The position numbers and the translations under genes are program-made. Source: Calditrichaceae bacterium (GTDB taxonomy: Bacteria > Calditrichota > Calditrichia > Calditrichales > JBFXGD01). From it: a stretch of 64,000 bases of DNA. Location: assembly GCA_050173015.1 (NCBI GenBank), contig JBFXLE010000003.1:192001-256000 (forward strand), read 5' to 3'. This document shows, in pieces, positions 41,109 through 52,577 of this stretch; within the stretch, counting starts at the first letter, position 1; the number at the start of each line of letters is the position of its first letter. Under the pieces are notes generated by a model. That model did not search any database. It had not been told where the DNA came from and was given only the letters and a program-made list of their open reading frames with translations.

Positions 41109-41143
41109 AATTCCTCCCCGCGAATGCGGGGAGGAATTTTTTT
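41109..41143 (+). terminator. Strong intrinsic terminator
   Basis: AATTCCTCCCCGC-GAAT-GCGGGGAGGAATT followed by a T run. Confidence 0.9.
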
Positions 41144-43254
41144 TATTTCAAAGTTTTTTGATTCTCGGATTGATTTTTATAATATTTTTTCAACCCATTA
41201 TAGAGCCACCGGGCCATTTCCTCAGCAGGCGGAAAATCAACAATTTGCAAATCAAGCGCTACAGCCGCCTTATTTGTGTTTCTGATTTCCGGAATATCCA
41301 TATTCTGCTCCACCGATATCTTATACACCGAATTCTTAAATTCATTGAGCAAAGCATCTGAAATATCAACACCTTTCATATTACCGGGATATGTTGTCGC
41401 CTTTATTTGATCAGGAAGATTTGTTGCTTTTGTTACCCCGAACCTCAGATACCACCCTTCAGGAAATTTATTGATCCTTTTAATCCGGTCATCAACGGAC
41501 AGATCAGAATTATCCTCCCGGACCATATAAACCGTCATACCCGCGAATTTCAATTTTTCGCTCAGATATTTCACCACCTGGAAATTATAGACAGATGCTG
41601 TCATGGAATCGTTTATACCCGCTCCTTTTTCGGAGCCTCCGTGCCGAGCGTCGATAACAATACTTTGATCAAAGAATAAACCATCCTCCACTTCCCTTAA
41701 ATCAAAATTCATTAAGGTTGTTTTATCGCTTTCAATCGCGATGTTGGTTTCCTGAGGGAAATACCCCCTTTTTTGCACCCGGATGGTATAATTCCCCTGA
41801 GGCATGCCTGTCAAAAAAAACCTTCCGTCAAAATCCGTTCGAGTCAGCAGACTGTCACAAGCGTAAATTTCCGCATCAGGCAGAATCGTTCCTGCTTTAA
41901 GACTGCGAATTTCACCCTGGAAAATACTTATCCCATCAGAAACGAACCGGATCATAAGGGAATCAACCGCGCTGTCCGCCTCAGCATATAGCCACATGGC
42001 GGAATCAAAAGGCGTACTGTGCAGATAGACGCGCGCGGAACCTCCCCGGAGCAATCCTTGTTTGGTTTCGAGACTGCCCCCATAATTGGAAAATCCAAAA
42101 TTAACGCCATCCCAAACCGGCTGACTATCTTTGTCAAGGAACAAAACATCAACCGGCAGATAGGAGATCCCGTCCGCGAGGATAGCCGCTGTCGGGATGG
42201 AAAAACGGATACCTTTTGCGGGAGATGACACGATAAAATTAATTGGGCGCTGTAAATTACTGTTCTTAAATAAATTGACCAGATCAACATCCACGGCGTG
42301 CTTTCCATTTGTCAGTGAAGAATCAACCGTGATCGTTATTCTGGCGGAATCCGGTTCAAAAGTAAACGGGACTTTACGCCCGTCAACACGTACATCCATC
42401 AGGCTGCTAAACAATCTGAGTCTTTCTGAATCGCGTCCGTTCCTATTTCTCAACCCGTCATCCACTTTCAATTTCAACCGGGGCATTTTCGAAATACTGA
42501 CTGAATCTTTACCCGCCAACCGGGCAGATGGAATTCCGCTCTTTGCGTATCTGGCAAGTCCCAGAAAAATACCATATGCTTCTCTCTTATTGTATTCTTT
42601 ATCCTTGAGCCGCTTTTCCTCCCGTCTGTTTGAATGGAAAGAGCTTTCGCATAAAATAGCGGGGATTTTTGTGGTTCGGAGCAACCCGAAACCCGCGGGA
42701 TAAATCTGCTGATCGGAATGAAGACCATCCGGGGAAATTTGCGGGAGACGCAAGGCGTCCACCAACCCGAAATAAACATTTCTCGCGATATCCATACTCG
42801 CGGGCGAAAGATCGGGATGGATATGATAGTAAACGGATACAAAGTTGGTGTTTGGATTTGCGGAAGCGTTATGATGGAGCGATATCAGAAAATCGGCGCC
42901 GGATGTGTTAGCTATATTCGCCCGGTCAGCAAGACTTACATAAACATCATTCGTCCTGGTCAGAACCACTTGCACACCTGCTTTTTCCAGAAATGATTGA
43001 AGATACAAAGCGACACGAAGATTTACTTCTGCTTCCCGAAGCCCTGAGGGCCCTCGCTTGTAGTCCTTTATCTGACTCAGTCCACCGTGCCCCGGATCAA
43101 TAACCACCTTGAATCCCTGCAAATATTTAGCGTAAACCGGTGTCGCGAAATACTCATCGGGAAGATCAGTCCAGACCTTCTCTTTCGACCCGATCCAGGC
43201 GCAGGATGAAACCAACAAACCGATAAACAGCACACTGAAGAATCTGACGTTCAT
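41143..43254 (-). CDS. N-acetylmuramoyl-L-alanine amidase lipoprotein (Amidase_3, Ig/carboxypeptidase-regulatory-like domains, degenerate second amidase domain)
   Basis: Lipobox VSSC; IDPGHGG, EAEVNL, SLHHNA, AILCESSF; second IVIDARHGG domain near the C-terminus. Confidence 0.85.
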   Translation of the reverse strand: MNVRFFSVLFIGLLVSSCAWIGSKEKVWTDLPDEYFATPVYAKYLQGFKVVIDPGHGGLSQIKDYKRGPSGLREAEVNLRVALYLQSFLEKAGVQVVLTRTNDVYVSLADRANIANTSGADFLISLHHNASANPNTNFVSVYYHIHPDLSPASMDIARNVYFGLVDALRLPQISPDGLHSDQQIYPAGFGLLRTTKIPAILCESSFHSNRREEKRLKDKEYNKREAYGIFLGLARYAKSGIPSARLAGKDSVSISKMPRLKLKVDDGLRNRNGRDSERLRLFSSLMDVRVDGRKVPFTFEPDSARITITVDSSLTNGKHAVDVDLVNLFKNSNLQRPINFIVSSPAKGIRFSIPTAAILADGISYLPVDVLFLDKDSQPVWDGVNFGFSNYGGSLETKQGLLRGGSARVYLHSTPFDSAMWLYAEADSAVDSLMIRFVSDGISIFQGEIRSLKAGTILPDAEIYACDSLLTRTDFDGRFFLTGMPQGNYTIRVQKRGYFPQETNIAIESDKTTLMNFDLREVEDGLFFDQSIVIDARHGGSEKGAGINDSMTASVYNFQVVKYLSEKLKFAGMTVYMVREDNSDLSVDDRIKRINKFPEGWYLRFGVTKATNLPDQIKATTYPGNMKGVDISDALLNEFKNSVYKISVEQNMDIPEIRNTNKAAVALDLQIVDFPPAEEMARWLYNGLKKYYKNQSENQKTLK

Positions 43255-43329: not shown

Positions 43330-46300
43330 CTAAATTTTCAAAGTATCATCCTCTGTTTTTGGAAAACCCGTTCGTAAATCTTTTACAAGACCGGAATACT
43401 TTTTTTCCACCTTGAATCCAAACCGGTAAAAATACTCAGGTCGCAGAAAGGCCGTGGTCACCAGTTCAACATACTCATCCCGCAGCCGGTTAAAGAATTC
43501 ATTCATGATACCTTCGCTGATTCCTTTCCTGCGGTAGCGATTCGAAACTACAATTTTTTCCATATAAACTGTTTTTTCATCTATGTAGCTGTAAAATAGT
43601 CCGCCGATGATGTGTCCCCGTTCTGAAACAGACACCAGAAAACGATGTTCCGGCCGGAAGTTCACCGGAAGACTTGCTTCAAGAAACAACTGATGCAGCC
43701 GGGATATTTCTTTTGGTGAAACCGGTCGCCTTACCTGAAAAGGCACCCCGTCATAATCATCCATTCGCACGACTACATCCGCCATTGAACCGCCGTCGCT
43801 AAGAGTGCTCACAAGAATCGCCGAATCTGTCGGCTTTAGATGCGGGTAACTGAGACGTGTTAGGAAGAAGGCCTCTTTTTCATTCAAGGTATATTCTTTC
43901 TGCACACTCGACAACAGGGATAGCGTCTCTTCTGTGGAGATATGTTTTTTATGTTGCTTTCGTACAATATCCATCATCTCTTCCTTCAACTGCCCGGAGG
44001 AATCGGCAAAAACAGTTTCCAGGAAAAACCGGGTCCGTGTTTCAGGATATTGACGATCCAGTTCCTGAAGTTGGTAAGTATCCGAGAGTTCATTAAGTGT
44101 CCTCGCCTGCGCGGTAAACGCGGCATCCTTGCTTATATTATACCAGCGGTGGAATCGCTTGATCGCAAAATACAATTTCTTAGGGACAAATCCGTTTTTC
44201 CTGGTTTGTGTCATGAACTCATTCAGGGAATCGGCGAGATTGTTCATGGGACACGGGATTTCTGAATTTTTTACCTCGCGGTAGATCTTTTTTAGTAATT
44301 TTAACCCGTTTTCTTCCCCCAGCGCGTCAAGTATCCCCGAAAAAACATAATTACAAAATGATTCTCTCTTTATAAAAGGATACTGTTCCTCGGAAGTTTT
44401 AATAAACTGCTCCGAAAAATCATGCAGCAACTCAACGGCGTTCGTGGTTGCGACACGCTCTGCTATGGATATAAACCGCACTCCTGTCTGATAATCATGG
44501 GAGGGAACAATGATATTATTAATCGATTTATCCGTCAACGCCATTTTATACCCCGTGCGTCTCCAGAAACTAATGTGGGCGGCCATTGCCGTCCGTATAA
44601 AAAACGGCCATAAGTAAAACAATCTTCGATTCATCTCTTCATTCTTCTTACGGATTCCTCTCTGCATTATTTTTCCGACGGAATCTCCGGAAGCAAACTC
44701 TTCGCTCCAGAGGTCATATTCTCTCCAATACCCTCCAAAATCATCCACAAGGCTCAATCCGTCCTTTGCCGCGCCTGCATGTATCAGCCAGTTCATTTCG
44801 GAAAGAATCTGTTCGGTGGGATAATTTTTATTCAGGTTCAGAGTAATATCGTAGCCGCCCTGGTATCTTGTTTGAACGGATACGCGATAAACAGATTTCT
44901 CGTTTGAACTGCTTAGCTGACTTACCCAAATTCCACCCGGCGGTATATCATATAAACGTATCATGTTTCCGTTTGAGAAAAGAAAAATCGCTTCTCTCAG
45001 GATGGAAGTATTAGTGATGGCATCCAACTGACGCTGTCTGTCTGAGTCGGGTATATCCTGTTCAAATATGATGACGTCCGACCAGCGGTATTCTTCACCG
45101 GTTTCCACATCAACCGCCACAGTCTGATTACTTCCCAACCAGTCCCGGAAACCATCCAGAAGTTTAATTCTTGCTTGCGAGGCTAATTCTGAAAGCTGCT
45201 GCCAGTCATTCCGAAGCTGATATTTAACGATGAGCTGGCGAACACGTTTGTAACGGGTAGGATGATAAATACCGTAAGTTGCCAGCAACTGAAACAGGGA
45301 AGGCAAAGCGGTTTTTTGCAAATTCGCTTTTTTTGACAATCCGGTTAATTCACTCTTGATAGCCGCGTAAATCGCATTGAGATTCTCATCGCCTCTGCTT
45401 GCTTTTACAATGTCTTCAATCAGTTCATTGTCGATAATTTCCGCATCATCACGAATAAATATCTTCAGAAACCATTCGAAGTTTTTACCTTTGAAAATCG
45501 GCAGGCCAAGTTTGAATAATTGTCTGCGGATCCCGGCATGAATACTAAAATTCGGCCGGGATATTAAATCGAGCGCCAAACTGTAAATCGGAAGATTTTC
45601 ATCTTCAAAAATCATGGCAAGATAATCTATTCCGTAAGCAGCCTCTTCAAAATTGCCGGATCGCAAATGTATCGCTGCCAGATTCAGCCCCATTAATGAT
45701 TTTTCCCCGCCGGATAAAACCATGTTCATAAGATCCAGTAAACGGCCGTTCAGGTCAACCGGCCCGGTCGTGGAATAATATTGAACAAGTTCATTCGAGC
45801 CGTCCAGGCGGTACCATTGAAATATGGCATCTCCTGCGAATTCAATCAGCTTTGTATTCCCCAGCCAATAAAGAGGATTGGCGAGGAATATCTGAAAATC
45901 AATATAATTGCGTTCTATTTTGTAGTTAAAATCACCGATCTGAAGTATTTCAGGACGTCCGTCATTCTGTTTTATTCTAAGTACCTGATCGTATTTTGGT
46001 ATAGAAAGCCCATCGGCGGTCGTTTTGATATCACCTTTGAGACACCCTTTTTCTCTCAGGAACCAGTTCGGGACACGTATCTCCGTCTCTCCCCACAATA
46101 AAGATGTATAATTTTTCGTATACATCAAATTGATGATATCATTAAAGTTGTTTTCGATCACACGGCGCTTGTAAGTACCTTTTGGTGTTAATTCTCCCTC
46201 TTCCGCGGTGAAAGGACGGTCGATAATTCTGAAATCGACAATGCGTTCGTATGGCGCGAGAAATTTATTAACGGTAACGACAACAGAAGAAAAGTAAGCC

Positions 46301-48198
46301 TGCTTTTCGGCTTCATCCATTCCTTTTAAAGCTGTAATTACTTTCTCCTCATCCGGATATATGAGGACAGTGTTGTACTGCCGGTGATCGCCTACCAAAA
46401 ACACCTGTTTTATGAATTCAAAATCCCGGAAGTAATTTTCAATTTTCTGCGGCGCGATCGTCTCACCTTTGACATTTTTATAAATTTCTTTTTTTCGATC
46501 GATTATTTCATAAAACTTATTTTCATCCTGTTTCATCACATCACCGGTGGGAAACCAGCCGTCCGTGAAAGCGTCCTCGCCTGATTTTAATCCATAATAT
46601 CCCATCATTACATAAGCGCCTTTGATGAGAAGTTCACCGTCATGTCCCAGTTTCACATCAATTCCCGGAAGCGGCCGGCCAAGAGAATTTGGAAGATATT
46701 GTCCCGGAGGAGTCATGGTGATACCCCCTGTTGCCTCGGTCATTCCAAATCCGCTCATCACTTCAATTCCATATCGCTGGAAGAACTGAAATACATCCGG
46801 CTCGAGATATCCTGCCGCAGAAAGTCCCCAGGCCAGTTTGCCGCCCGTTGCCTTTTTTACGGCTTTTTTAATTATCTTTTCATCATCAAATTCAATATCC
46901 GTTTTTTGAGAAATATATTCATATAGCTGATACCATTTTTTGGGAATGCTGATAAATACCGTGGGTTTCAGCCGTTCCATATTATCAAGCATGGTTTCCA
47001 GCGCGGGATTCTCCATAAATCCATACTCAGCGCCCCAAAAAACAGATCCAAGCATCTCTAGATATCTTCCGAAGGTGTGGAATAGCGGCAAATAGGCCAG
47101 AAACCGATCCTGATGTCCTATTTTCGGCAATGCCATCGCGCGACAAAATCGTTTATACACCAGATTCATGTTTGAAAACATAATGCCTTTGGGGTCGCCT
47201 GTGGTACCGGACGTGTACATGATTGTGGCAAGCTCATCTATCTTTATGTTTTTTTGAAGGGTCAAATAACTTTGTTCCGGTAAACTGATCCCCCGCGCCA
47301 CCATTTCCTGAAAGGTCATCACCCAGTCTTCTATGCTGCTGCCTTCCATGAGAACAACGTTTTTAAGATGCTTAAGATTTTTTCTGACTGATTTTACTTT
47401 TGCCAGCTGTTTGTCGTTCGCTACAAAAACGACGGATGCTTCTGTTTGATTGAGAATGAATTCCACATGCTGTTCAACTGAATTTGCCGGTATCATTATA
47501 TTTACGATCCCGGTTGTCAGGCAGGCTAGATCAAGAAGAGCCATATTCAGGCTGTTTTCCATCAGAAATGCTACTTTGCCGGGTTTATCACCATTCTGAA
47601 GCGCCAGTTTCGCCAGACCAAACGAGTACCTCTTTACAAGCTCATCAATCTGATTCCATGAATAATCTGTCTCAGTATTGCCATGAAACACCTTAAAAAG
47701 AACTTTTTTATTGTATTCCTTCACCCGCTGCCTGAACATCGCGGCCACATTAAAATTACTGATCACAATCAGTTTATGAATAAGAAATTCCCATTTTTTT
47801 TGTTCATAAATCTTGATCAGAAATTCTGACTGACGAAAAACATCAAGATAACTGTGAATTAATTTACAGGCCGCCGTCTGCCGGTCATAGTCCCTTTCTG
47901 AAACAATGCTTATCAGATATTCGCCAAACCGGTAATAGATGTCGGAATCCAGTTTTTGCGCCAACAGGACAATCATTTCATTGAGTCCGGCTGATTCAAA
48001 GATTTCGTTCCAGGTATGTATTAGCTCCGGATACTGTTTAAACAGATCTGCTTCCACCACCTGATTAACTGAATCATTTATGGATTTACCAAAACTTCGC
48101 CTGTTCTCCGCCGGCAAAGCATCAACGCCCGCCTGCACCGTCTCATTAATAAAATTGGCGTGACTCATTATTACCGCTTTATTTTCTCTTGTAGCCAT
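43330..48198 (-). CDS. Long-chain acyl-CoA ligase-like AMP-binding domain fused through about 800 aa of unknown sequence to a C-terminal GNAT
   Basis: YTSGTTGDPKG, GFGMTE, GWFPTGD, IIDRKKE; C-terminal EKIVVSNRYRRKGIS...FYRFGF. Confidence 0.85.
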   Translation of the reverse strand: MATRENKAVIMSHANFINETVQAGVDALPAENRRSFGKSINDSVNQVVEADLFKQYPELIHTWNEIFESAGLNEMIVLLAQKLDSDIYYRFGEYLISIVSERDYDRQTAACKLIHSYLDVFRQSEFLIKIYEQKKWEFLIHKLIVISNFNVAAMFRQRVKEYNKKVLFKVFHGNTETDYSWNQIDELVKRYSFGLAKLALQNGDKPGKVAFLMENSLNMALLDLACLTTGIVNIMIPANSVEQHVEFILNQTEASVVFVANDKQLAKVKSVRKNLKHLKNVVLMEGSSIEDWVMTFQEMVARGISLPEQSYLTLQKNIKIDELATIMYTSGTTGDPKGIMFSNMNLVYKRFCRAMALPKIGHQDRFLAYLPLFHTFGRYLEMLGSVFWGAEYGFMENPALETMLDNMERLKPTVFISIPKKWYQLYEYISQKTDIEFDDEKIIKKAVKKATGGKLAWGLSAAGYLEPDVFQFFQRYGIEVMSGFGMTEATGGITMTPPGQYLPNSLGRPLPGIDVKLGHDGELLIKGAYVMMGYYGLKSGEDAFTDGWFPTGDVMKQDENKFYEIIDRKKEIYKNVKGETIAPQKIENYFRDFEFIKQVFLVGDHRQYNTVLIYPDEEKVITALKGMDEAEKQAYFSSVVVTVNKFLAPYERIVDFRIIDRPFTAEEGELTPKGTYKRRVIENNFNDIINLMYTKNYTSLLWGETEIRVPNWFLREKGCLKGDIKTTADGLSIPKYDQVLRIKQNDGRPEILQIGDFNYKIERNYIDFQIFLANPLYWLGNTKLIEFAGDAIFQWYRLDGSNELVQYYSTTGPVDLNGRLLDLMNMVLSGGEKSLMGLNLAAIHLRSGNFEEAAYGIDYLAMIFEDENLPIYSLALDLISRPNFSIHAGIRRQLFKLGLPIFKGKNFEWFLKIFIRDDAEIIDNELIEDIVKASRGDENLNAIYAAIKSELTGLSKKANLQKTALPSLFQLLATYGIYHPTRYKRVRQLIVKYQLRNDWQQLSELASQARIKLLDGFRDWLGSNQTVAVDVETGEEYRWSDVIIFEQDIPDSDRQRQLDAITNTSILREAIFLFSNGNMIRLYDIPPGGIWVSQLSSSNEKSVYRVSVQTRYQGGYDITLNLNKNYPTEQILSEMNWLIHAGAAKDGLSLVDDFGGYWREYDLWSEEFASGDSVGKIMQRGIRKKNEEMNRRLFYLWPFFIRTAMAAHISFWRRTGYKMALTDKSINNIIVPSHDYQTGVRFISIAERVATTNAVELLHDFSEQFIKTSEEQYPFIKRESFCNYVFSGILDALGEENGLKLLKKIYREVKNSEIPCPMNNLADSLNEFMTQTRKNGFVPKKLYFAIKRFHRWYNISKDAAFTAQARTLNELSDTYQLQELDRQYPETRTRFFLETVFADSSGQLKEEMMDIVRKQHKKHISTEETLSLLSSVQKEYTLNEKEAFFLTRLSYPHLKPTDSAILVSTLSDGGSMADVVVRMDDYDGVPFQVRRPVSPKEISRLHQLFLEASLPVNFRPEHRFLVSVSERGHIIGGLFYSYIDEKTVYMEKIVVSNRYRRKGISEGIMNEFFNRLRDEYVELVTTAFLRPEYFYRFGFKVEKKYSGLVKDLRTGFPKTEDDTLKI

Positions 48199-48280: not shown

Positions 48281-48317
48281 AAAAAAAAACGGGATTGAAA
48301 TAATTCAACCCCGTTTT
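48281..48317 (-). terminator. Intrinsic terminator after the DUF4097 gene
   Basis: Minus strand AAAACGGGGTTGAA...TTCAATCCCG followed by T9. Confidence 0.8.
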
Positions 48318-48339
48318 CCGGTGTTATTTGGTTTGGTAG

Positions 48340-49143
48340 CTATTTTTTATACAATTTTATGCTTCCGTTAGTTGTTTTTAAATATATCTGCGCCCCACCC
48401 TCGTTAATCATTCCGGACACCATTCTCTTTGATTCACTGTAATATTCGGTGACAGGAAGCTCGCAATCGATACTCCCGTTCGTGGTCTGAGCCTTGAAGT
48501 CAGCATTCAGGTTCTCAGGAAGATAGATCTTAATCGAACCATTGGTGGAGTTGAAGGTCATATCGTCATCCGGATAGACTTTTTCGAAAGACGCGTTGAT
48601 TTTGCCGTTAGTCGTCTTACCTCGAACCAATCCGCTCACATCATCAGCTTGTATATTCCCGTTGGTCGTCTCCAGTCTTAACCGCCCTTCACAGCCGTCC
48701 AGATTTATTGAGCCGTTCGTTGAATGAATATTCAAATCCATTTTTTCCGGTACATTTATCTCATAATTAACGGAATAATTGTTATCCCCGCCGCTTAAAA
48801 GCCAGGAAAAAAACCCACTGCCACCATGTTTTTTGTGGGGTTGACTGGTGATAATCTCAACCTTACTCCCGGTCTGAAGAATATCAATCTCCAATTCTTT
48901 CATCATCTCGCGTGCTTTATCCATATTGGATGAACGTACTTTTTTATAGGCAATGATTTCAATTTCATTTTTATCCCATGACCGGATATCGATACTACCA
49001 TTCGTATTTTCAAGAATAAGGAGTTCTTTTCCTTCAGACGGAATCCTTTTTTTGAATGTCTCCTCCAGTGTCGCCGCGTGGAGCAAAGATGTCAATAAAA
49101 TAATATTCAAGACAAAGAACAGGATAATCGTTGATCGTTTCAT
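48340..49143 (-). CDS. DUF4097 beta-strand-repeat secreted protein
   Basis: Signal peptide; many (S/T)TNG(S/N/K)I repeats. Confidence 0.85.
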   Translation of the reverse strand: MKRSTIILFFVLNIILLTSLLHAATLEETFKKRIPSEGKELLILENTNGSIDIRSWDKNEIEIIAYKKVRSSNMDKAREMMKELEIDILQTGSKVEIITSQPHKKHGGSGFFSWLLSGGDNNYSVNYEINVPEKMDLNIHSTNGSINLDGCEGRLRLETTNGNIQADDVSGLVRGKTTNGKINASFEKVYPDDDMTFNSTNGSIKIYLPENLNADFKAQTTNGSIDCELPVTEYYSESKRMVSGMINEGGAQIYLKTTNGSIKLYKK

Positions 49144-49161
49144 GACACACTCCTGATTTAT

Positions 49162-50922
49162 TTATTTATCAAGACGGAAAATGGTAATACCCCAACTCGT
49201 AGGATCGTGAGGTTGAGTTGCATTCCAGTTGTAATAGGAATGACTGTCATCAGAACGGAAGTGAACGCGATAGGTACCGGAATCTAAATTAATCACAGTA
49301 TCAACCTTTCTGTTCTTTTTTGAGCCTCCGGCGTTTTCAGTATCCCTGTATCGCATTTTCCATACGGTATCGCCTGTATTTACATCCTCAATCCATCCGT
49401 AATCGTACATCTCATCCCAATCACCTTCACCGATCGCATAAATACGCACCCGCGACTTCTTTTTGATCGTAAACTGTTTTTTTACATGTTCATCATCACC
49501 AATCCTGGTGAGTTCAGCCAGAATATTATCATTCTTTGTCGTAAAAGTGTCTATACGTTCTGCTGCCTTGTTATCCGCTACAGGGTAAATGGCGACTCCC
49601 CAGGATTCGGCATCTATGGGTGGACTGGTATTCCAGTCTTCGTAGGAATGTGAATCGTCACTCTGATAGTGAAGCATATACTCACCCGGACTCAGCTCAA
49701 CAACCTGATCCAACATCCTGTTTTTACTGGCGCCACCGGCCGCGATAGTATCTTTGAATCGCATTTTCCAGATAATTTGCCCGGTTTTAACGTCTGTGAT
49801 CCACCCATAATCAAACATTTCTCCGTCTCGGCCTTCTCCAAGAGCATAAATTCTGAAATTTGATTTTCTGTTTACCCTGAAGCCTTCTTCGTGATAATCA
49901 TTATCACGCACTCTTGAAATTCTGACGATTGCGTTTTTTTCAGACTCTTCAAATTTTTTCACGGCAGCGCGGTCAAAATCCGGATTCTCGGGTTGAATCG
50001 AAAGACCCCAGAAATAAGGATCATAGGGTGGATTCGCGTTCCAGCGCGCGTCGGAATGATTATCATCAGATTTATAATAGACGATATAGTTTCCGGGGGC
50101 AAGACTGATCTTCTTTTCAAATACCAGATTTTTCACCGCCCCCCCGGCATACTCTGAATCCTGTTCCCTCATTTCCCAGATTTTTTCCCTTGTTTTCGCG
50201 TCCACAATCCACCCAAAATCGTACATCTCCCCTTTAAAACCTTCCCCTAACCCGTAAACAACAACATTTAACTGTTTTGTTAATGTGAATCCCCTGCTCT
50301 CATAGGCGCGATCCCCGATATCCGTCAAACTGATGATTGCCGATTCTTTGAGAGCCTTTTGATATTTTCTGACCGCTTGTTCATTTAATACGGCATCTAC
50401 CCCGCTCACCTGAACCAGCCATTTATTTGAATGATCTTCCCACCAGGTATCGGATCCGAAAATTTTATCCATCAGGCGTCCGAAACTCAAAAAACCATCC
50501 CCAAAACTAAAATATGTTGGTTCTACGGCGGCGAAATAAAGCTCATATTCACCGGCCGGCAATTTGACTTCACCTCTGAATTCCCTGTTCCATTTGTCCC
50601 ACCAGTCCGTTTTTGAATTATCCTGAGTCATGCGCCAGACCATTTTTCTGGTTTTCGCGTCAATGATCCATGCATAAGCAAAAAGATTAAACTTATCTTC
50701 CTGGAAACTATGAATTCTTTTAATCGTCTTATCGGCTCCGGCTCCAATCGCGTGTATTTTTAGGGTCCGGGGAGAATTAAGCGTAAATCCCGCCAGATTT
50801 ACCTGTCCTTTATCCTTGTCAAAATCTTTTAACTCAACCGACTGATTTTGGGCAGTCAGTTGAGGCGTAGCCAACGCAATGACCAGCAAACCAGTGAATA
50901 TTATAATGAAATTCTTGTTCAT
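49162..50922 (-). CDS. Secreted protein with four tandem ~135-aa repeats of unknown function
   Basis: Signal peptide; repeated GEG..EM.D.GWI..W.M..AGG..KN..G.Y..SDD.HS..WN..P.D..WG (first copy degenerate). Confidence 0.8.
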   Translation of the reverse strand: MNKNFIIIFTGLLVIALATPQLTAQNQSVELKDFDKDKGQVNLAGFTLNSPRTLKIHAIGAGADKTIKRIHSFQEDKFNLFAYAWIIDAKTRKMVWRMTQDNSKTDWWDKWNREFRGEVKLPAGEYELYFAAVEPTYFSFGDGFLSFGRLMDKIFGSDTWWEDHSNKWLVQVSGVDAVLNEQAVRKYQKALKESAIISLTDIGDRAYESRGFTLTKQLNVVVYGLGEGFKGEMYDFGWIVDAKTREKIWEMREQDSEYAGGAVKNLVFEKKISLAPGNYIVYYKSDDNHSDARWNANPPYDPYFWGLSIQPENPDFDRAAVKKFEESEKNAIVRISRVRDNDYHEEGFRVNRKSNFRIYALGEGRDGEMFDYGWITDVKTGQIIWKMRFKDTIAAGGASKNRMLDQVVELSPGEYMLHYQSDDSHSYEDWNTSPPIDAESWGVAIYPVADNKAAERIDTFTTKNDNILAELTRIGDDEHVKKQFTIKKKSRVRIYAIGEGDWDEMYDYGWIEDVNTGDTVWKMRYRDTENAGGSKKNRKVDTVINLDSGTYRVHFRSDDSHSYYNWNATQPHDPTSWGITIFRLDK

Positions 50923-50937
50923 AAAGTCCCATCCTTG

Positions 50938-52530
50938 TTAAAATGGCTTTGTCAATCTGAATATGACCTCGATGGGCTCATTGTTCGTATCCAGTCTCTT
51001 CGCGAAGCTCAAACGGTATTCACCGGACCAGCTCGTAAGCGCTAAACCTATATCAGATTTTATATTGTTTATCGTGAGATTTGAGAATCCTTCATACCAT
51101 TTATCATCTTCCGGATTATTCACAAACCACGCCTTACCCATGTCAAAGAAAAGAATGTACCGCATCCTGTCTAAAAACAGTAAATTTGCCGATACTGTTT
51201 TCGGGCTGATATTGTATTCAAAATTGGCAAGTACCATCCGGTCACCCGCGTATTCCTTATGATCAAAACCGCGCAATGTGCTTAATCCGCCGATCTCATA
51301 CCACTTCTGTACCGGCAATTCGCCTTCCGATGACCCAATTTTCAGACGCATATCAAGCCGTTCATTGCCACCAAATTTTTGATAACGCCGCAGTTCAAAA
51401 ATATACTGATTAAAATAGAAATCACTTTCCAGATCAGAATTTGACATTTCCATTGAAACCAAACCATACCAGCCGCGCCGAGGAAGTTTTTTGTTATCAC
51501 GTGTGTCCAGATACAGTTCTCCGTAAATACTTCTCATGTTGCCTTCATTTATGAGAGGATTGGGCTGAAAATCTTTGTCCCCGCCAAAAAGGGCCCAGTT
51601 CGTATTTCTTTTAACGGATTCATAATCATCATTACGATAGGCCAGCGTACCCTTAAAAAAAATGGAGATATTTTGACTCATATGAAATTCATAACCCGTG
51701 CGTCGAAAATAATCCTGGAAATCTTCATGTATCAGGAAAGACGCGAGACTGTTTTCCATTGGGGTGATCAGCCAGTCATCTTTTGTATCAGTCAAATCAT
51801 GCACCTTGGCGCCAATTTCAAAACGGTAATCTTTTTGGTTGATCAGCCAGCGGTCCACTCCGATTTCGTAACGCCATTTTTTTTCTTTAAAACCATATCC
51901 TCCAAATCCGTGCATGGAAAAATATCTGTTTTTACCACTGATCTTTTTGGGAACTCCTAGTCCCAGGAAAACGCCCTGAACTCGATTATACCGCAGGATG
52001 AACTCATCATCCCAGCCTCCTAAAGGCAACGTACTGTATGAACCGTAAAATCGCCTCGACCAGTTCCAGTCCCACCAGTCATCATTACCCACATCATACT
52101 CATCATCCCATTCAGTGCGGGGGAAAAGATTTTTTGCCCGGGTTTCGACCTGATTACCGGTAATCGTACTCTTTTCATCTTGATAAATACGGCCGTTTAT
52201 GCTGGTCACATTCCCGTAGATTCTTCCTGTCTGACCGGTTCGCACATCCCCCAGAATCACAACCACATCGCCGTTGACCTGACCGTTTACGGATAAATTG
52301 CCCTTTACGACCACTACATTTCCGTCAATAGTGTCGTCTTCTGCGATAACCTTGTCGTCTGTATAGCGGTATTCGTCTCTTGTTTCATCGCTTAAATACT
52401 TCTCTTTTGCCCGTTTTTCAACTTTGTTAATATTTGGAATATCTTCATCGAAATCCTGTGTATAGCCGGTCCCATAACAGAAAAAAACCACTGCAGTTAA
52501 TAAAAAAAGTCTTTTGGTTACAAAAAACAT
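50938..52530 (-). CDS. Omp85/BamA-TamA-like barrel with bactofilin-like beta-helical N-terminus, no POTRA
   Basis: GNVVVVKGNLSVNGQVNGDVVVILG repeats; RYNRVQG, LPRRGWY, IGGLSTLRGF, AGDRMVLANFEY, C-terminal Phe; start ATG 52530 after GGAGG. Confidence 0.75.
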   Translation of the reverse strand: MFFVTKRLFLLTAVVFFCYGTGYTQDFDEDIPNINKVEKRAKEKYLSDETRDEYRYTDDKVIAEDDTIDGNVVVVKGNLSVNGQVNGDVVVILGDVRTGQTGRIYGNVTSINGRIYQDEKSTITGNQVETRAKNLFPRTEWDDEYDVGNDDWWDWNWSRRFYGSYSTLPLGGWDDEFILRYNRVQGVFLGLGVPKKISGKNRYFSMHGFGGYGFKEKKWRYEIGVDRWLINQKDYRFEIGAKVHDLTDTKDDWLITPMENSLASFLIHEDFQDYFRRTGYEFHMSQNISIFFKGTLAYRNDDYESVKRNTNWALFGGDKDFQPNPLINEGNMRSIYGELYLDTRDNKKLPRRGWYGLVSMEMSNSDLESDFYFNQYIFELRRYQKFGGNERLDMRLKIGSSEGELPVQKWYEIGGLSTLRGFDHKEYAGDRMVLANFEYNISPKTVSANLLFLDRMRYILFFDMGKAWFVNNPEDDKWYEGFSNLTINNIKSDIGLALTSWSGEYRLSFAKRLDTNNEPIEVIFRLTKPF

Positions 52531-52577
52531 ATCTGCCTCCACAAAGATTGCGATATGGGTATTTTATTTCGTATAAG

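Follow-up and report, generated by a model that had tools for sequence, protein, structure and literature searches.

In the window, a 64,000-nucleotide (nt) stretch of DNA from a Calditrichaceae bacterium, a single open reading frame (P0001; 43330..48198, minus strand) encodes a protein of 1,622 aa that joins an AMP-forming acyl ligase, a beta-rich domain, a helical solenoid, a probable pseudokinase, a second helical block, and a GNAT domain. This protein is a real, widespread, and apparently unstudied bacterial fusion. The reading that we favor, tentatively, is a self-contained protein acyltransferase that acts at citrate synthase and in which an acid-activating module of its own supplies or gates the transfer. 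Architecture, conservation, folds, motif states, and gene neighborhood were computed; the activity, the acid, the acceptor, and the binding to citrate synthase make up our proposal.

Extent and architecture of the fusion family

The reading frame is unbroken, and Pfam identifies both a ligase (AMP-binding at aa 156 to 535, E = 8e-65, and AMP-binding_C_3 at aa 576 to 695) and a GNAT domain (Acetyltransf_1 at aa 1513 to 1595, E = 2.7e-7), in agreement with the fusion proposed in a preliminary description of this DNA. That description had allowed for an assembly chimera whose homologs exist only as separate genes. Among 7,999 candidates scored, however, we found 348 homologs of the Pfam-less middle region, most of them about 1,600 aa long with ligase and GNAT domains, and the fusion is therefore not a chimera. 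The family has 319 representatives at 50% identity (E ≤ 0.001) and further copies in the phylum, and in run X1, which may be the window's own source, a single assembled contig covers the entire gene. The layout persists even where identity in the middle falls to about 22%, and PF00501, PF23562, and a GNAT family were present in 16 of 17 tested distant homologs of at least 1,470 aa, the remaining one having no GNAT. A ligase plus a GNAT in one chain is thus a conserved architecture.

Members come from several little-studied phyla: they occur in Calditrichota and Ignavibacteria, and fragments carry the names Acidobacteriota, Marinimicrobia, Gemmatimonadetes, Planctomycetes, and Anaeromyxobacteraceae. 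A standalone form of the ligase was also considered and rejected: among the best 120 short matches, taken from 6,808 matches in all and in many cases named "partial," the projected C termini were scattered between about aa 550 and 1135 and did not cluster where the domain ends. P0407, which looks chimeric, was the one exception. The middle region had 32 short matches. Database entries label members as long-chain acyl-CoA synthetase or FadD15, which is probably wrong for the family. In the literature covered, which leaves most subscription journals outside, we found no paper on a ligase-pseudokinase-GNAT architecture and no characterized function for it, a possibility that the preliminary description had raised.

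The chain begins with a poorly conserved N-terminal extension (47761..48198, minus strand, as are all features given here; aa 1 to 146), in which mean column conservation is 0.29 and 2 of 146 columns reach at least 0.9. The ligase follows at 46114..47760 (aa 147 to 695; PF00501 and PF23562) and belongs to the ACSL/FadD15/CAR branch of the ANL enzymes. The next 800 or so residues had been left unassigned, and aa 696 to 1510 indeed have no Pfam family. Their predicted fold is confident and comprises a beta-rich domain without a family assignment (45709..46113, about aa 696 to 830; model pLDDT about 90), a helical solenoid (45139..45708, about aa 831 to 1020, from DSSP of the model), a protein-kinase-like fold (44164..45138, aa 1021 to 1345), and a second helical block (43834..44163, about aa 1346 to 1455, also from DSSP), 11 of whose 110 columns are conserved at 0.9 or above. 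A beta hairpin and the GNAT (43363..43833, about aa 1456 to 1612) complete the protein. The motifs quoted earlier were all located (SVYRVSV at 1102, EMNWLI at 1134, FGGY at 1154, LWSEEF at 1163, and ELTPKGTYKR at 669 to 678). An ESM Atlas search gave no usable match for the beta-rich domain, every row being below 0.9, and whole-model VIA structure searches were dominated by GNAT matches.

Between the ORF and the upstream DUF4097 gene lies a terminator-like hairpin with a 16-pair stem (48284..48319, minus strand; 14 such terminators were counted in the region, close to the mean of 11.1 in shuffled sequence), which suggests that transcription of the ORF does not simply continue from the upstream genes. 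The window neighbors (DUF4097, a 586-aa protein without a family, Omp85, and an amidase) were dropped as partners because they recur only at locus L001 and partly at L002. The PAP2, esterase, hopanoid, and pyrG neighbors were likewise set aside, being confined to Ignavibacteria-like loci.

ATP motifs, the A10 loop, and the GNAT domain

Residue conservation was counted over 173 full-length family sequences. The ligase scores 219.5 bits against PF00501 (gathering threshold, 29.9), its A3, A5, A7, and A8 motifs are intact, and its ATP motifs are nearly invariant (T329 and K337 in 172 of 173; E488, D553, and R568 in 173). No other part of the protein is as well conserved as the ANL C-subdomain (mean, 0.68). 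In the A10 loop, ELTPKGTYKR (46165..46194, aa 669 to 678), Lys and Thr are exchanged: K673 is present in 172/173, R678 in 173/173, and the canonical position, 675, holds not the catalytic Lys but Thr or Ser (171/173). The preliminary description had noticed this shift, and alignment upholds it, since four carboxylic acid reductase (CAR) sequences and the two ordinary FadD15-like ligases that the genome encodes (ELTPSLKVKR and EYTPTLKIKR) have a Lys matching T675. In the accessible text of PMC8388817, the A10 Lys is the key catalytic residue for adenylation. The fusion offers a natural experiment on whether ANL enzymes tolerate a two-residue displacement of the catalytic Lys.

The loss of Lys from position 675 would also be expected if the ANL module did not turn over at all, and instead bound a metabolite (an anionic acid, ATP or AMP, or a CoA ester) and switched the GNAT allosterically, as in Pat and PatZ; the GNAT would then acetylate citrate synthase or other enzymes from cellular acetyl-CoA. 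The accessible parts of PMC11254643 and of the PatZ preprint describe an inactive NDP-forming ligase-like domain as the regulator of Type I and II GNATs, and the kinase module of the fusion is already disabled. The near-invariance of the other ATP motifs and of K673, together with the conservation of the C-subdomain, nevertheless seems more than pure binding usually needs, and we regard a sensor without turnover as possible but rather unlikely. In the acyltransferase that we favor, the ANL module would bind ATP together with a particular small anionic acid, as its invariant motifs suggest, and would probably make acyl-AMP and acyl-CoA with K673 replacing the canonical A10 Lys.

Compared with L001, the GNAT carries 49 synonymous codon differences and 1 nonsynonymous difference, the lowest nonsynonymous share of all domains (1 of 50 changed codons). 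Its motif A (RYRRKGIS at aa 1554; R/Q-x-x-G-x-G/A) has R1556 in 148 and G1559 in 167 of the 173 sequences, with Ser (130), Gly (25), or Ala (15) at the last position. The structural matches include YhbS (Z 15.7) and Tetrahymena Gcn5 (Z 15.3), and Gcn5/PCAF proteins are among the top ones (Z 14.6 to 15.3, rmsd 2.0 to 3.2), while their sequence match is weak (E = 0.027). The general-base Glu that Gcn5/PCAF have at the start of beta-4 aligns with Y1545, where the family has His (83/173) or Tyr (62/173) and not an acid.

The fusion might act on small molecules or lipids, the ligase making an acyl-CoA with which the GNAT would N-acylate an amino acid, a polyamine, or a lipid head group; the citrate synthase neighborhood would then be incidental or a matter of precursor supply. 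In structure, YhbS, ArgA, and other nonprotein GNATs score level with Gcn5 or nearly so (small-molecule GNATs fall within 1 to 2 Z of it), an acid is kept two residues on, at the beta-bulge (E1547; E/D in 169/173), which is not Gcn5's position, and small-molecule kinases are among the nearest kinase-fold matches. Yet near the fusion, none of the genes that recur in different lineages serves tailoring, transport, or lipid synthesis, and a scaffold of 800 residues would be hard to square with a two-step reaction. We consider this reading unlikely. As a protein acyltransferase, the GNAT, whose fold and CoA-binding motif are seen, would acylate an amine, for which a protein lysine is the most likely candidate.

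Candidate acid and candidate acceptor

The helix after the P-loop carries a basic triad, K349, R350, and R353 (KRFCR, 47140..47154, aa 349 to 353), each residue of which is present in 173/173. The genome's ordinary FadD15-like ligases have N-V-E/Q-x-S/C in its place. R353 aligns with a luciferase Arg that we take to be residue 218. This Arg is listed as lining the substrate site (PMC6122825), and we infer from the alignment that the triad lines the acyl pocket. Altogether, 46 invariant positions differ from both ordinary ligases, many of them in segments that, judged by sequence alone, line the pocket. The invariant triad, which neither of these ordinary ligases has, argues for an anionic acid, and not a long-chain fatty acid, as the probable substrate.

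The preliminary description had instead pointed to fatty acids, with a ligase module of the long-chain type that would sense them or supply long acyl groups to the GNAT. FadD11 and long-chain ligases are in fact the best family matches of the ligase, the C-subdomain is that of PF23562, and Gly-Gly at 491 and 492 could leave space for a large substrate. The scores, however, are far under the curated NCBIfam cutoffs (206.9 versus 950 for FadD11 and 200.1 versus 476 for PRK06187), the triad and further invariant substitutions stand where ordinary ligases hold neutral residues, two ordinary FadD15-like genes already exist elsewhere in the genome, and no beta-oxidation gene family was among the recurring neighbors scanned. 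A fatty-acid role is accordingly improbable, although the wider proposal, an activate-and-transfer or ligand-sensing acyltransferase, is still the best class of explanation.

Of 161 homologous loci, 64 contain citrate synthase, identified by PRK09569 above its cutoff. The arrangement varies: the gene is immediately upstream in the same orientation in 49, immediately downstream in the same orientation in 3, and downstream on the opposite strand in 3. A single Ignavibacteria clade supplies most of the adjacent cases, and the set includes some duplicate loci. In the fusion tree, the linked loci are spread over separate clades, with L147, the closest relative but for L001, among them, and their citrate synthases form three clades, about 70%, 46%, and 28% identical to that of L032. 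Among 42 distant loci, citrate synthase occurs in 7, versus 6 for each of three other neighbor clusters; at 11 further loci it was absent from the nearest scanned neighbors, and L166 has one about 11 kb off. Fusion and citrate synthase distances correlate (r = 0.59 over 50 loci), for which shared ancestry alone suffices as a cause. None of the 40 copies in the phylum has a citrate synthase beside it, and in the window's genome the gene lies at 94401 to 95702 of another contig, C5. By hand count, a eukaryote-type citrate synthase is present in 13/14 genomes with the fusion in the G080 class versus 62/121 overall (both at E < 1e-100) and, in the phylum, in 34/40 genomes with the fusion and 27/38 without it; the phylum search around G081 took in only 3 genomes. 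Since the gene so often lies beside citrate synthase, its neighborhood hints at a regulatory step where the Krebs cycle begins. In E. coli, according to the accessible text of PMC11254643, citrate synthase activity responds to lysine acetylation. The genome also encodes a sirtuin, which could reverse lysine acylation.

In Aquificae, two enzymes cleave citrate via citryl-CoA. The fusion could be a partner in such a route, its ligase making citryl-CoA (ATP to AMP), citrate synthase splitting it to acetyl-CoA and oxaloacetate, and the GNAT serving as a built-in switch; three invariant basic residues would fit a tricarboxylate, and the repeated adjacency would fit as well. Citrate synthases also hydrolyze citryl-CoA, however, so ATP would be wasted, no further reductive-TCA gene recurs near the fusion, and the pseudokinase arm is left without an explanation, all of which makes this route very unlikely. 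Isocitrate lyase was not found in the 97%-complete genome, and the ATP-citrate lyase family search matched nothing anywhere, controls included, which leaves that search uninformative.

For the protein acyltransferase that we prefer, the acid would most likely be a TCA-cycle di- or tricarboxylate held by the triad, and the leading acceptor candidate would be the eukaryote-type citrate synthase. The distant architecture, ATP motifs, basic triad, GNAT codon constraint, citrate synthase adjacency, and sirtuin speak for it; the missing canonical A10 Lys, the phylum copies, the absent Gcn5 general base, and the closeness of small-molecule GNATs speak against it. More specifically, and more doubtfully, the fusion could be a dedicated writer of lysine acylation with a negatively charged group such as succinyl or citryl, an enzyme that would activate a free TCA acid with its relocated Lys, pass the thioester across the pseudokinase arm to the GNAT, and modify citrate synthase as product feedback. 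Such acylation in bacteria is regarded as mostly nonenzymatic, and should a TCA polycarboxylate prove to be the substrate, the fusion would be a concrete candidate enzyme for it.

The kinase-like domain and comparison with known systems

Structure prediction (pLDDT 93) and fold search bear out a two-lobed kinase fold where the preliminary description had seen a loose resemblance. The closest fold listed is Bud32 (4ww5; Z 12.7, rmsd 4.0, 215 aligned), and all 50 matches listed are kinase-fold proteins (Z 12.7 to 9.8, identities of 6 to 16%), with Rio and small-molecule kinases among the nearest. With motif positions assigned by the secondary structure of the model and the spacing between motifs instead of residue-level superposition, a Lys near the beta-3 position is found in 7/173 sequences, the DFG position has Asp in 0/173 and Ser in 160/173, the catalytic-loop Asp (D1223) is present in 83/173, and all three occur together in 0/173. 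Because the usual Lys and DFG Asp are absent, the domain is probably a pseudokinase; an active atypical kinase, for which one could cite the Bud32, Rio, and small-molecule kinase matches and the retention of E1134 (128/173), N1228 (152/173), and D1235, is extremely improbable in the face of those counts. Solenoid, pseudokinase, and second helical block may together form a rigid, noncatalytic arm that would couple the state of the ligase to the GNAT and might dock the target. Neither the pseudokinase state nor the citrate synthase link had been remarked on in the preliminary description.

The two-lobed fold is common to the fusion and to Bud32/PRPK, Rio, and ELK-type kinases, whereas the catalytic Lys and DFG Asp are missing from the fusion. 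PI3K/VPS34 chains, the whole-model Foldseek matches to the solenoid and kinase region, also have a helical block before the kinase, but a match this loose (rmsd of about 19 to 20) shows no relationship. The ligase shares PF00501, PF23562, and motifs A3, A5, A7, and A8 with ACSL/FadD15/FadD11 and with CARs, and differs from them in its A10 swap and in invariant KRFxR, HTFGR, SAAG, and ATGG segments. CAR adenylation domains are its best PDB sequence matches (E = 3e-27), yet CARs continue into carrier and reductase domains, neither of which Pfam finds in the fusion, whose C-terminal half is kinase-like plus GNAT.

E. coli PatZ, Salmonella Pat, and S. lividans PatA likewise combine a big enzyme-derived module with a terminal GNAT, and the GNAT of the fusion matches those of SlPatA (4u5y; Z 13.3) and PatZ (9isq; Z 12.4). 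The regulatory part of PatZ can help to form the substrate site, as the accessible part of the PatZ preprint has it. Type I and II Pat enzymes, however, are about 880 aa long with an NDP-forming module, whereas the fusion has an AMP-forming ANL module, 1,620 aa, and some 800 extra residues that include the pseudokinase. The preliminary description had drawn the same contrast, and the 9 Pfam matches at E ≤ 0.1 include no CoA_binding, Succ_CoA_lig, or ATP-grasp family, the corresponding region being ANL. Measured against the accessible portions of the PatZ preprint and PMC11254643, the fusion matches none of the five bacterial GNAT types described there and, built from three superfamilies, would be a sixth layout beside them.

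The fusion ORF and its family

The fusion is encoded on the minus strand at window positions 43330-48198 as a single uninterrupted frame of 1,622 amino acids. Pfam assigns aa 156-535 to an AMP-binding domain, aa 576-695 to an ACSL/CAR-type C-subdomain, and aa 1513-1595 to a GNAT, and finds no family between the last two. The motifs quoted in the preliminary description lie at aa 1102, 1134, 1154, 1163, and 669-678; its observation on the ORF is confirmed. A terminator-like hairpin (48284-48319) is found 5' of the gene, in a region whose 14 such sites lie close to the shuffle mean of 11.1. At window position 47631, in codon 190 by count and at a variable position, all three sequencing runs compared have C where the window has T; this is possibly a base error or a strain difference, and the frame is unaffected.

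An assembly chimera, which the preliminary description had raised, is ruled out by homologues of the same architecture across many genomes. An architecture search with aa 700-1480 identified a single-chain family of 348 proteins among 7,999 candidates scored. Among the 120 listed of these 348, most measure about 1,590 to 1,625 aa, all but one carry a ligase Pfam family, and most carry a GNAT family. An exhaustive search returned 319 family representatives (50% identity, E ≤ 0.001); 16 of 17 distant members tested, at least 1,470 aa long, have ligase, C-subdomain, and GNAT, the remaining one missing the GNAT. The middle region occurs in 40 of 78 genomes from the window's phylum, nearly always in a single open frame of about 1,600 aa, and in 14 of 121 genomes from the class of genome G080. 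The nearest named locus, at 93% identity, is a Calditrichaceae MAG; named carriers also include Ignavibacteria plus a few bins of Gemmatimonadota and Desulfobacterales, and fragments are labeled Acidobacteriota, Marinimicrobia, Planctomycetes, Anaeromyxobacteraceae, Krumholzibacteria, and Eisenbacteria. Against the closest homologue, L001, synonymous codon changes exceed nonsynonymous ones in every domain, most strongly in the GNAT (49 to 1). No study of the architecture was found in the literature covered, at the level of search listings and abstract openings and with few subscription journals. The family is real, widespread, and apparently an uncharacterized form of regulated bacterial acyltransferase.

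The best 120 shorter ligase hits showed no standalone ligase form, with no peak of protein ends at the domain boundary. One short homologue, P0407 (640 aa, on a 2.5-kb contig), has the N-terminal part of the fusion family (KRFAR) followed by an ordinary FadD15-like C-subdomain with the canonical Lys, after which it stops; either the assembly misjoined two sequences at the conserved A7 motif, or the hybrid is natural and rare. The fusion is broken into two to four ORFs, at differing positions, in L018, L020, L035, L040, L045, L048, L054, L068, L070, and L111. The adjacent citrate synthase is likewise split in L020 and L035, which fits frameshift errors in sequencing better than true breaks.

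Predicted domains and conserved residues

The ATP-binding motifs of the ligase are near-invariant across 173 sequences (T329 and K337 in 172 each; E488, D553, and R568 in all). In the A10 loop (ELTPKGTYKR), position 675 is Lys in four carboxylic acid reductases and in the genome's two ordinary FadD15-like ligases and T/S in 171 of the 173 fusions, while position 673 is S/T in ordinary ligases and Lys in 172 fusions. By alignment, the A10 Lys and T/S are exchanged across the loop between 673 and 675, bearing out the shifted Lys of the preliminary description.

At 46 family-invariant positions the residue matches neither ordinary ligase. Many of these positions lie in segments that by alignment line the superfamily acyl pocket; the segments are KRFxR (349-353), TFG (375-377), E381, GLSAAG (458-463), S482, and ATGG (489-492). 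The basic residues K349, R350, and R353 are each kept in all 173 full-length sequences. In a HMMER alignment, R353 matches a luciferase Arg on the same helix (Arg 218). PMC6122825 places this luciferase residue among those lining the substrate site. On alignment evidence, the pocket substitutions and the R353 match speak for a particular anionic substrate and against a long acyl chain.

A structure model of aa 700-1622 (108 sequences, mean pLDDT 89.3) runs from a beta-rich domain through a helical solenoid, a two-lobed domain, and another helical block to a hairpin and the GNAT. The kinase-like lobe suspected earlier is upheld: modeled alone (aa 1020-1345, pLDDT 93.2), the two-lobed domain matches kinase-fold proteins in every listed row of two structure searches, led by Bud32 (Z 12.7, rmsd 4.0, 215 aligned) and followed within about 2 Z units by homoserine, amicoumacin, aminoglycoside, and Rio kinases. 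With motif positions set by model secondary structure and the usual spacing of kinase motifs rather than residue-level superposition, a Lys lies near the beta-3 position in 7 of 173 full-length sequences, the catalytic-loop Asp occurs in 83, and the DFG position is Ser in 160 and Asp in none. We read the modeled domain as a pseudokinase.

The GNAT matches YhbS (Z 15.7), Tetrahymena Gcn5 (15.3), Ard1 (15.1), PCAF (14.9), ArgA (14.8), and the SlPatA GNAT (13.3). Motif A is retained (G1559 in 167 of 173); Y1545 aligns with the general-base Glu of Gcn5, and an acid is kept at position 1547 (E/D in 169 of 173).

Genomic neighborhood

Citrate synthase is present in 64 of 161 fusion loci: upstream on the same strand in 58 (49 without an intervening ORF), immediately downstream and co-oriented in 3, and downstream on the opposite strand in 3. 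The representative tested is of eukaryote type, over the PRK09569 cut-off. These cases come mostly from one clade, with several duplicate loci, and many loci are short-flanked. On a FastTree phylogeny with long branches flagged, they occur in the Ignavibacteria clade, a high-GC clade (L092, L094, L101, L117), L131, and L147, which is second only to L001 in relatedness to the window's protein. The adjacent enzymes form three groups, at about 70%, 46%, and 28% identity to that of the reference locus L032. Among 42 distant loci, citrate synthase occurs in 7, versus 6 for each of three other neighbor clusters. It adjoins the fusion in none of the 40 carriers in the window's phylum, including the window's genome, where it lies on another contig (C5), nor was it among the nearest scanned neighbors at eleven further loci. 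By hand counts of related, nonindependent genomes, eukaryote-type citrate synthase is encoded in 13 of 14 fusion genomes versus 62 of 121 overall in the class of G080, and in 34 of 40 carriers versus 27 of 38 noncarriers in the window's phylum. The link is recurrent but not obligatory, and we infer that its frequency clearly exceeds what chance would give for one gene.

In many Melioribacteraceae-like loci (L051:2048-3337, L042:1541-2383, and others related to them), citrate synthase and the fusion are immediately preceded by hopanoid genes, HpnE and HpnD scoring over cut-off. At L081:10072-11052 (minus strand), the gene directly upstream of the genome's citrate synthase encodes 326 aa and, judging by a motif, resembles a phosphate acetyltransferase. 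An NDP-forming acyl-CoA synthetase-like gene (ATP-grasp_5, Succ_CoA_lig) is found two genes 5' of the fusion in L101 (1151-3313), where citrate synthase is convergent downstream, and also in L124. A Macro-domain gene directly 3' on the same strand is a single case (L175:7311-7925, genome G069).

In the window, the fusion is flanked by envelope genes that accompany it elsewhere only at the closest loci. On the minus strand, 5' of the fusion, 48340-52542 encodes a DUF4097 protein, a 586-aa protein (signal peptide, apparent internal repeats, no Pfam hit at threshold), and an Omp85-family protein, a block partly retained in L001 and L002. The 703-aa lipoprotein-like gene at 41143-43254 (minus strand), 76 bases 3', has two Amidase_3 stretches and a carboxypeptidase-regulatory-like domain.

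Candidate mechanism and relation to known systems

Our best, tentative reading is that the ligase would activate a small anionic acid, the pseudokinase arm would couple the modules or dock a target, and the GNAT would acylate a protein, with citrate synthase as the leading candidate. A non-adenylating ANL enzyme, PtmA2, offers a parallel in having lost the A10 Lys. As described in PMC8388817, this Lys is the catalytic residue for adenylation and an acetylation target. The exchange could mean a relocated or a disabled catalyst, and its invariance favors relocation. A ligase acting only as a sensor, in the manner of Pat/PatZ, is the strongest rival, if somewhat unlikely; jointly, these two readings make a protein-directed GNAT under metabolite control probable. 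The boldest reading, that the fusion serves specifically to carry out negatively charged lysine acylation at TCA entry, is doubtful.

As modeled, the GNAT fold gives no means of telling protein acceptors from small-molecule ones. N-acylation of a small molecule or lipid seems rather improbable. The interpretation in the preliminary description is partly supported. Its activate-and-transfer or sensing class still explains the fusion best, but its long-chain fatty acid is not supported: the fusion scores far below curated cut-offs for long-chain ligases and carries the basic triad, leaving the fatty-acid version with little likelihood. Supply of citryl-CoA to the often adjacent citrate synthase is more doubtful still, and an active kinase can be set aside almost entirely, with beta-3 Lys, catalytic-loop Asp, and DFG Asp together in 0 of 173 full-length sequences.

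Among known systems, type I/II Pat enzymes come closest to how the fusion would work; in them, according to a preprint on PatZ (10.1101/2024.11.12.623305), PMC11254643, and PMC8556138, an enzyme-derived module is paired with a GNAT. The fusion falls outside them because the NDP-forming domain is absent, a contrast that the preliminary description had drawn correctly. By profile it belongs to the ANL superfamily yet fails at the A10 position, and it differs from long-chain ligases in missing their curated cut-offs.
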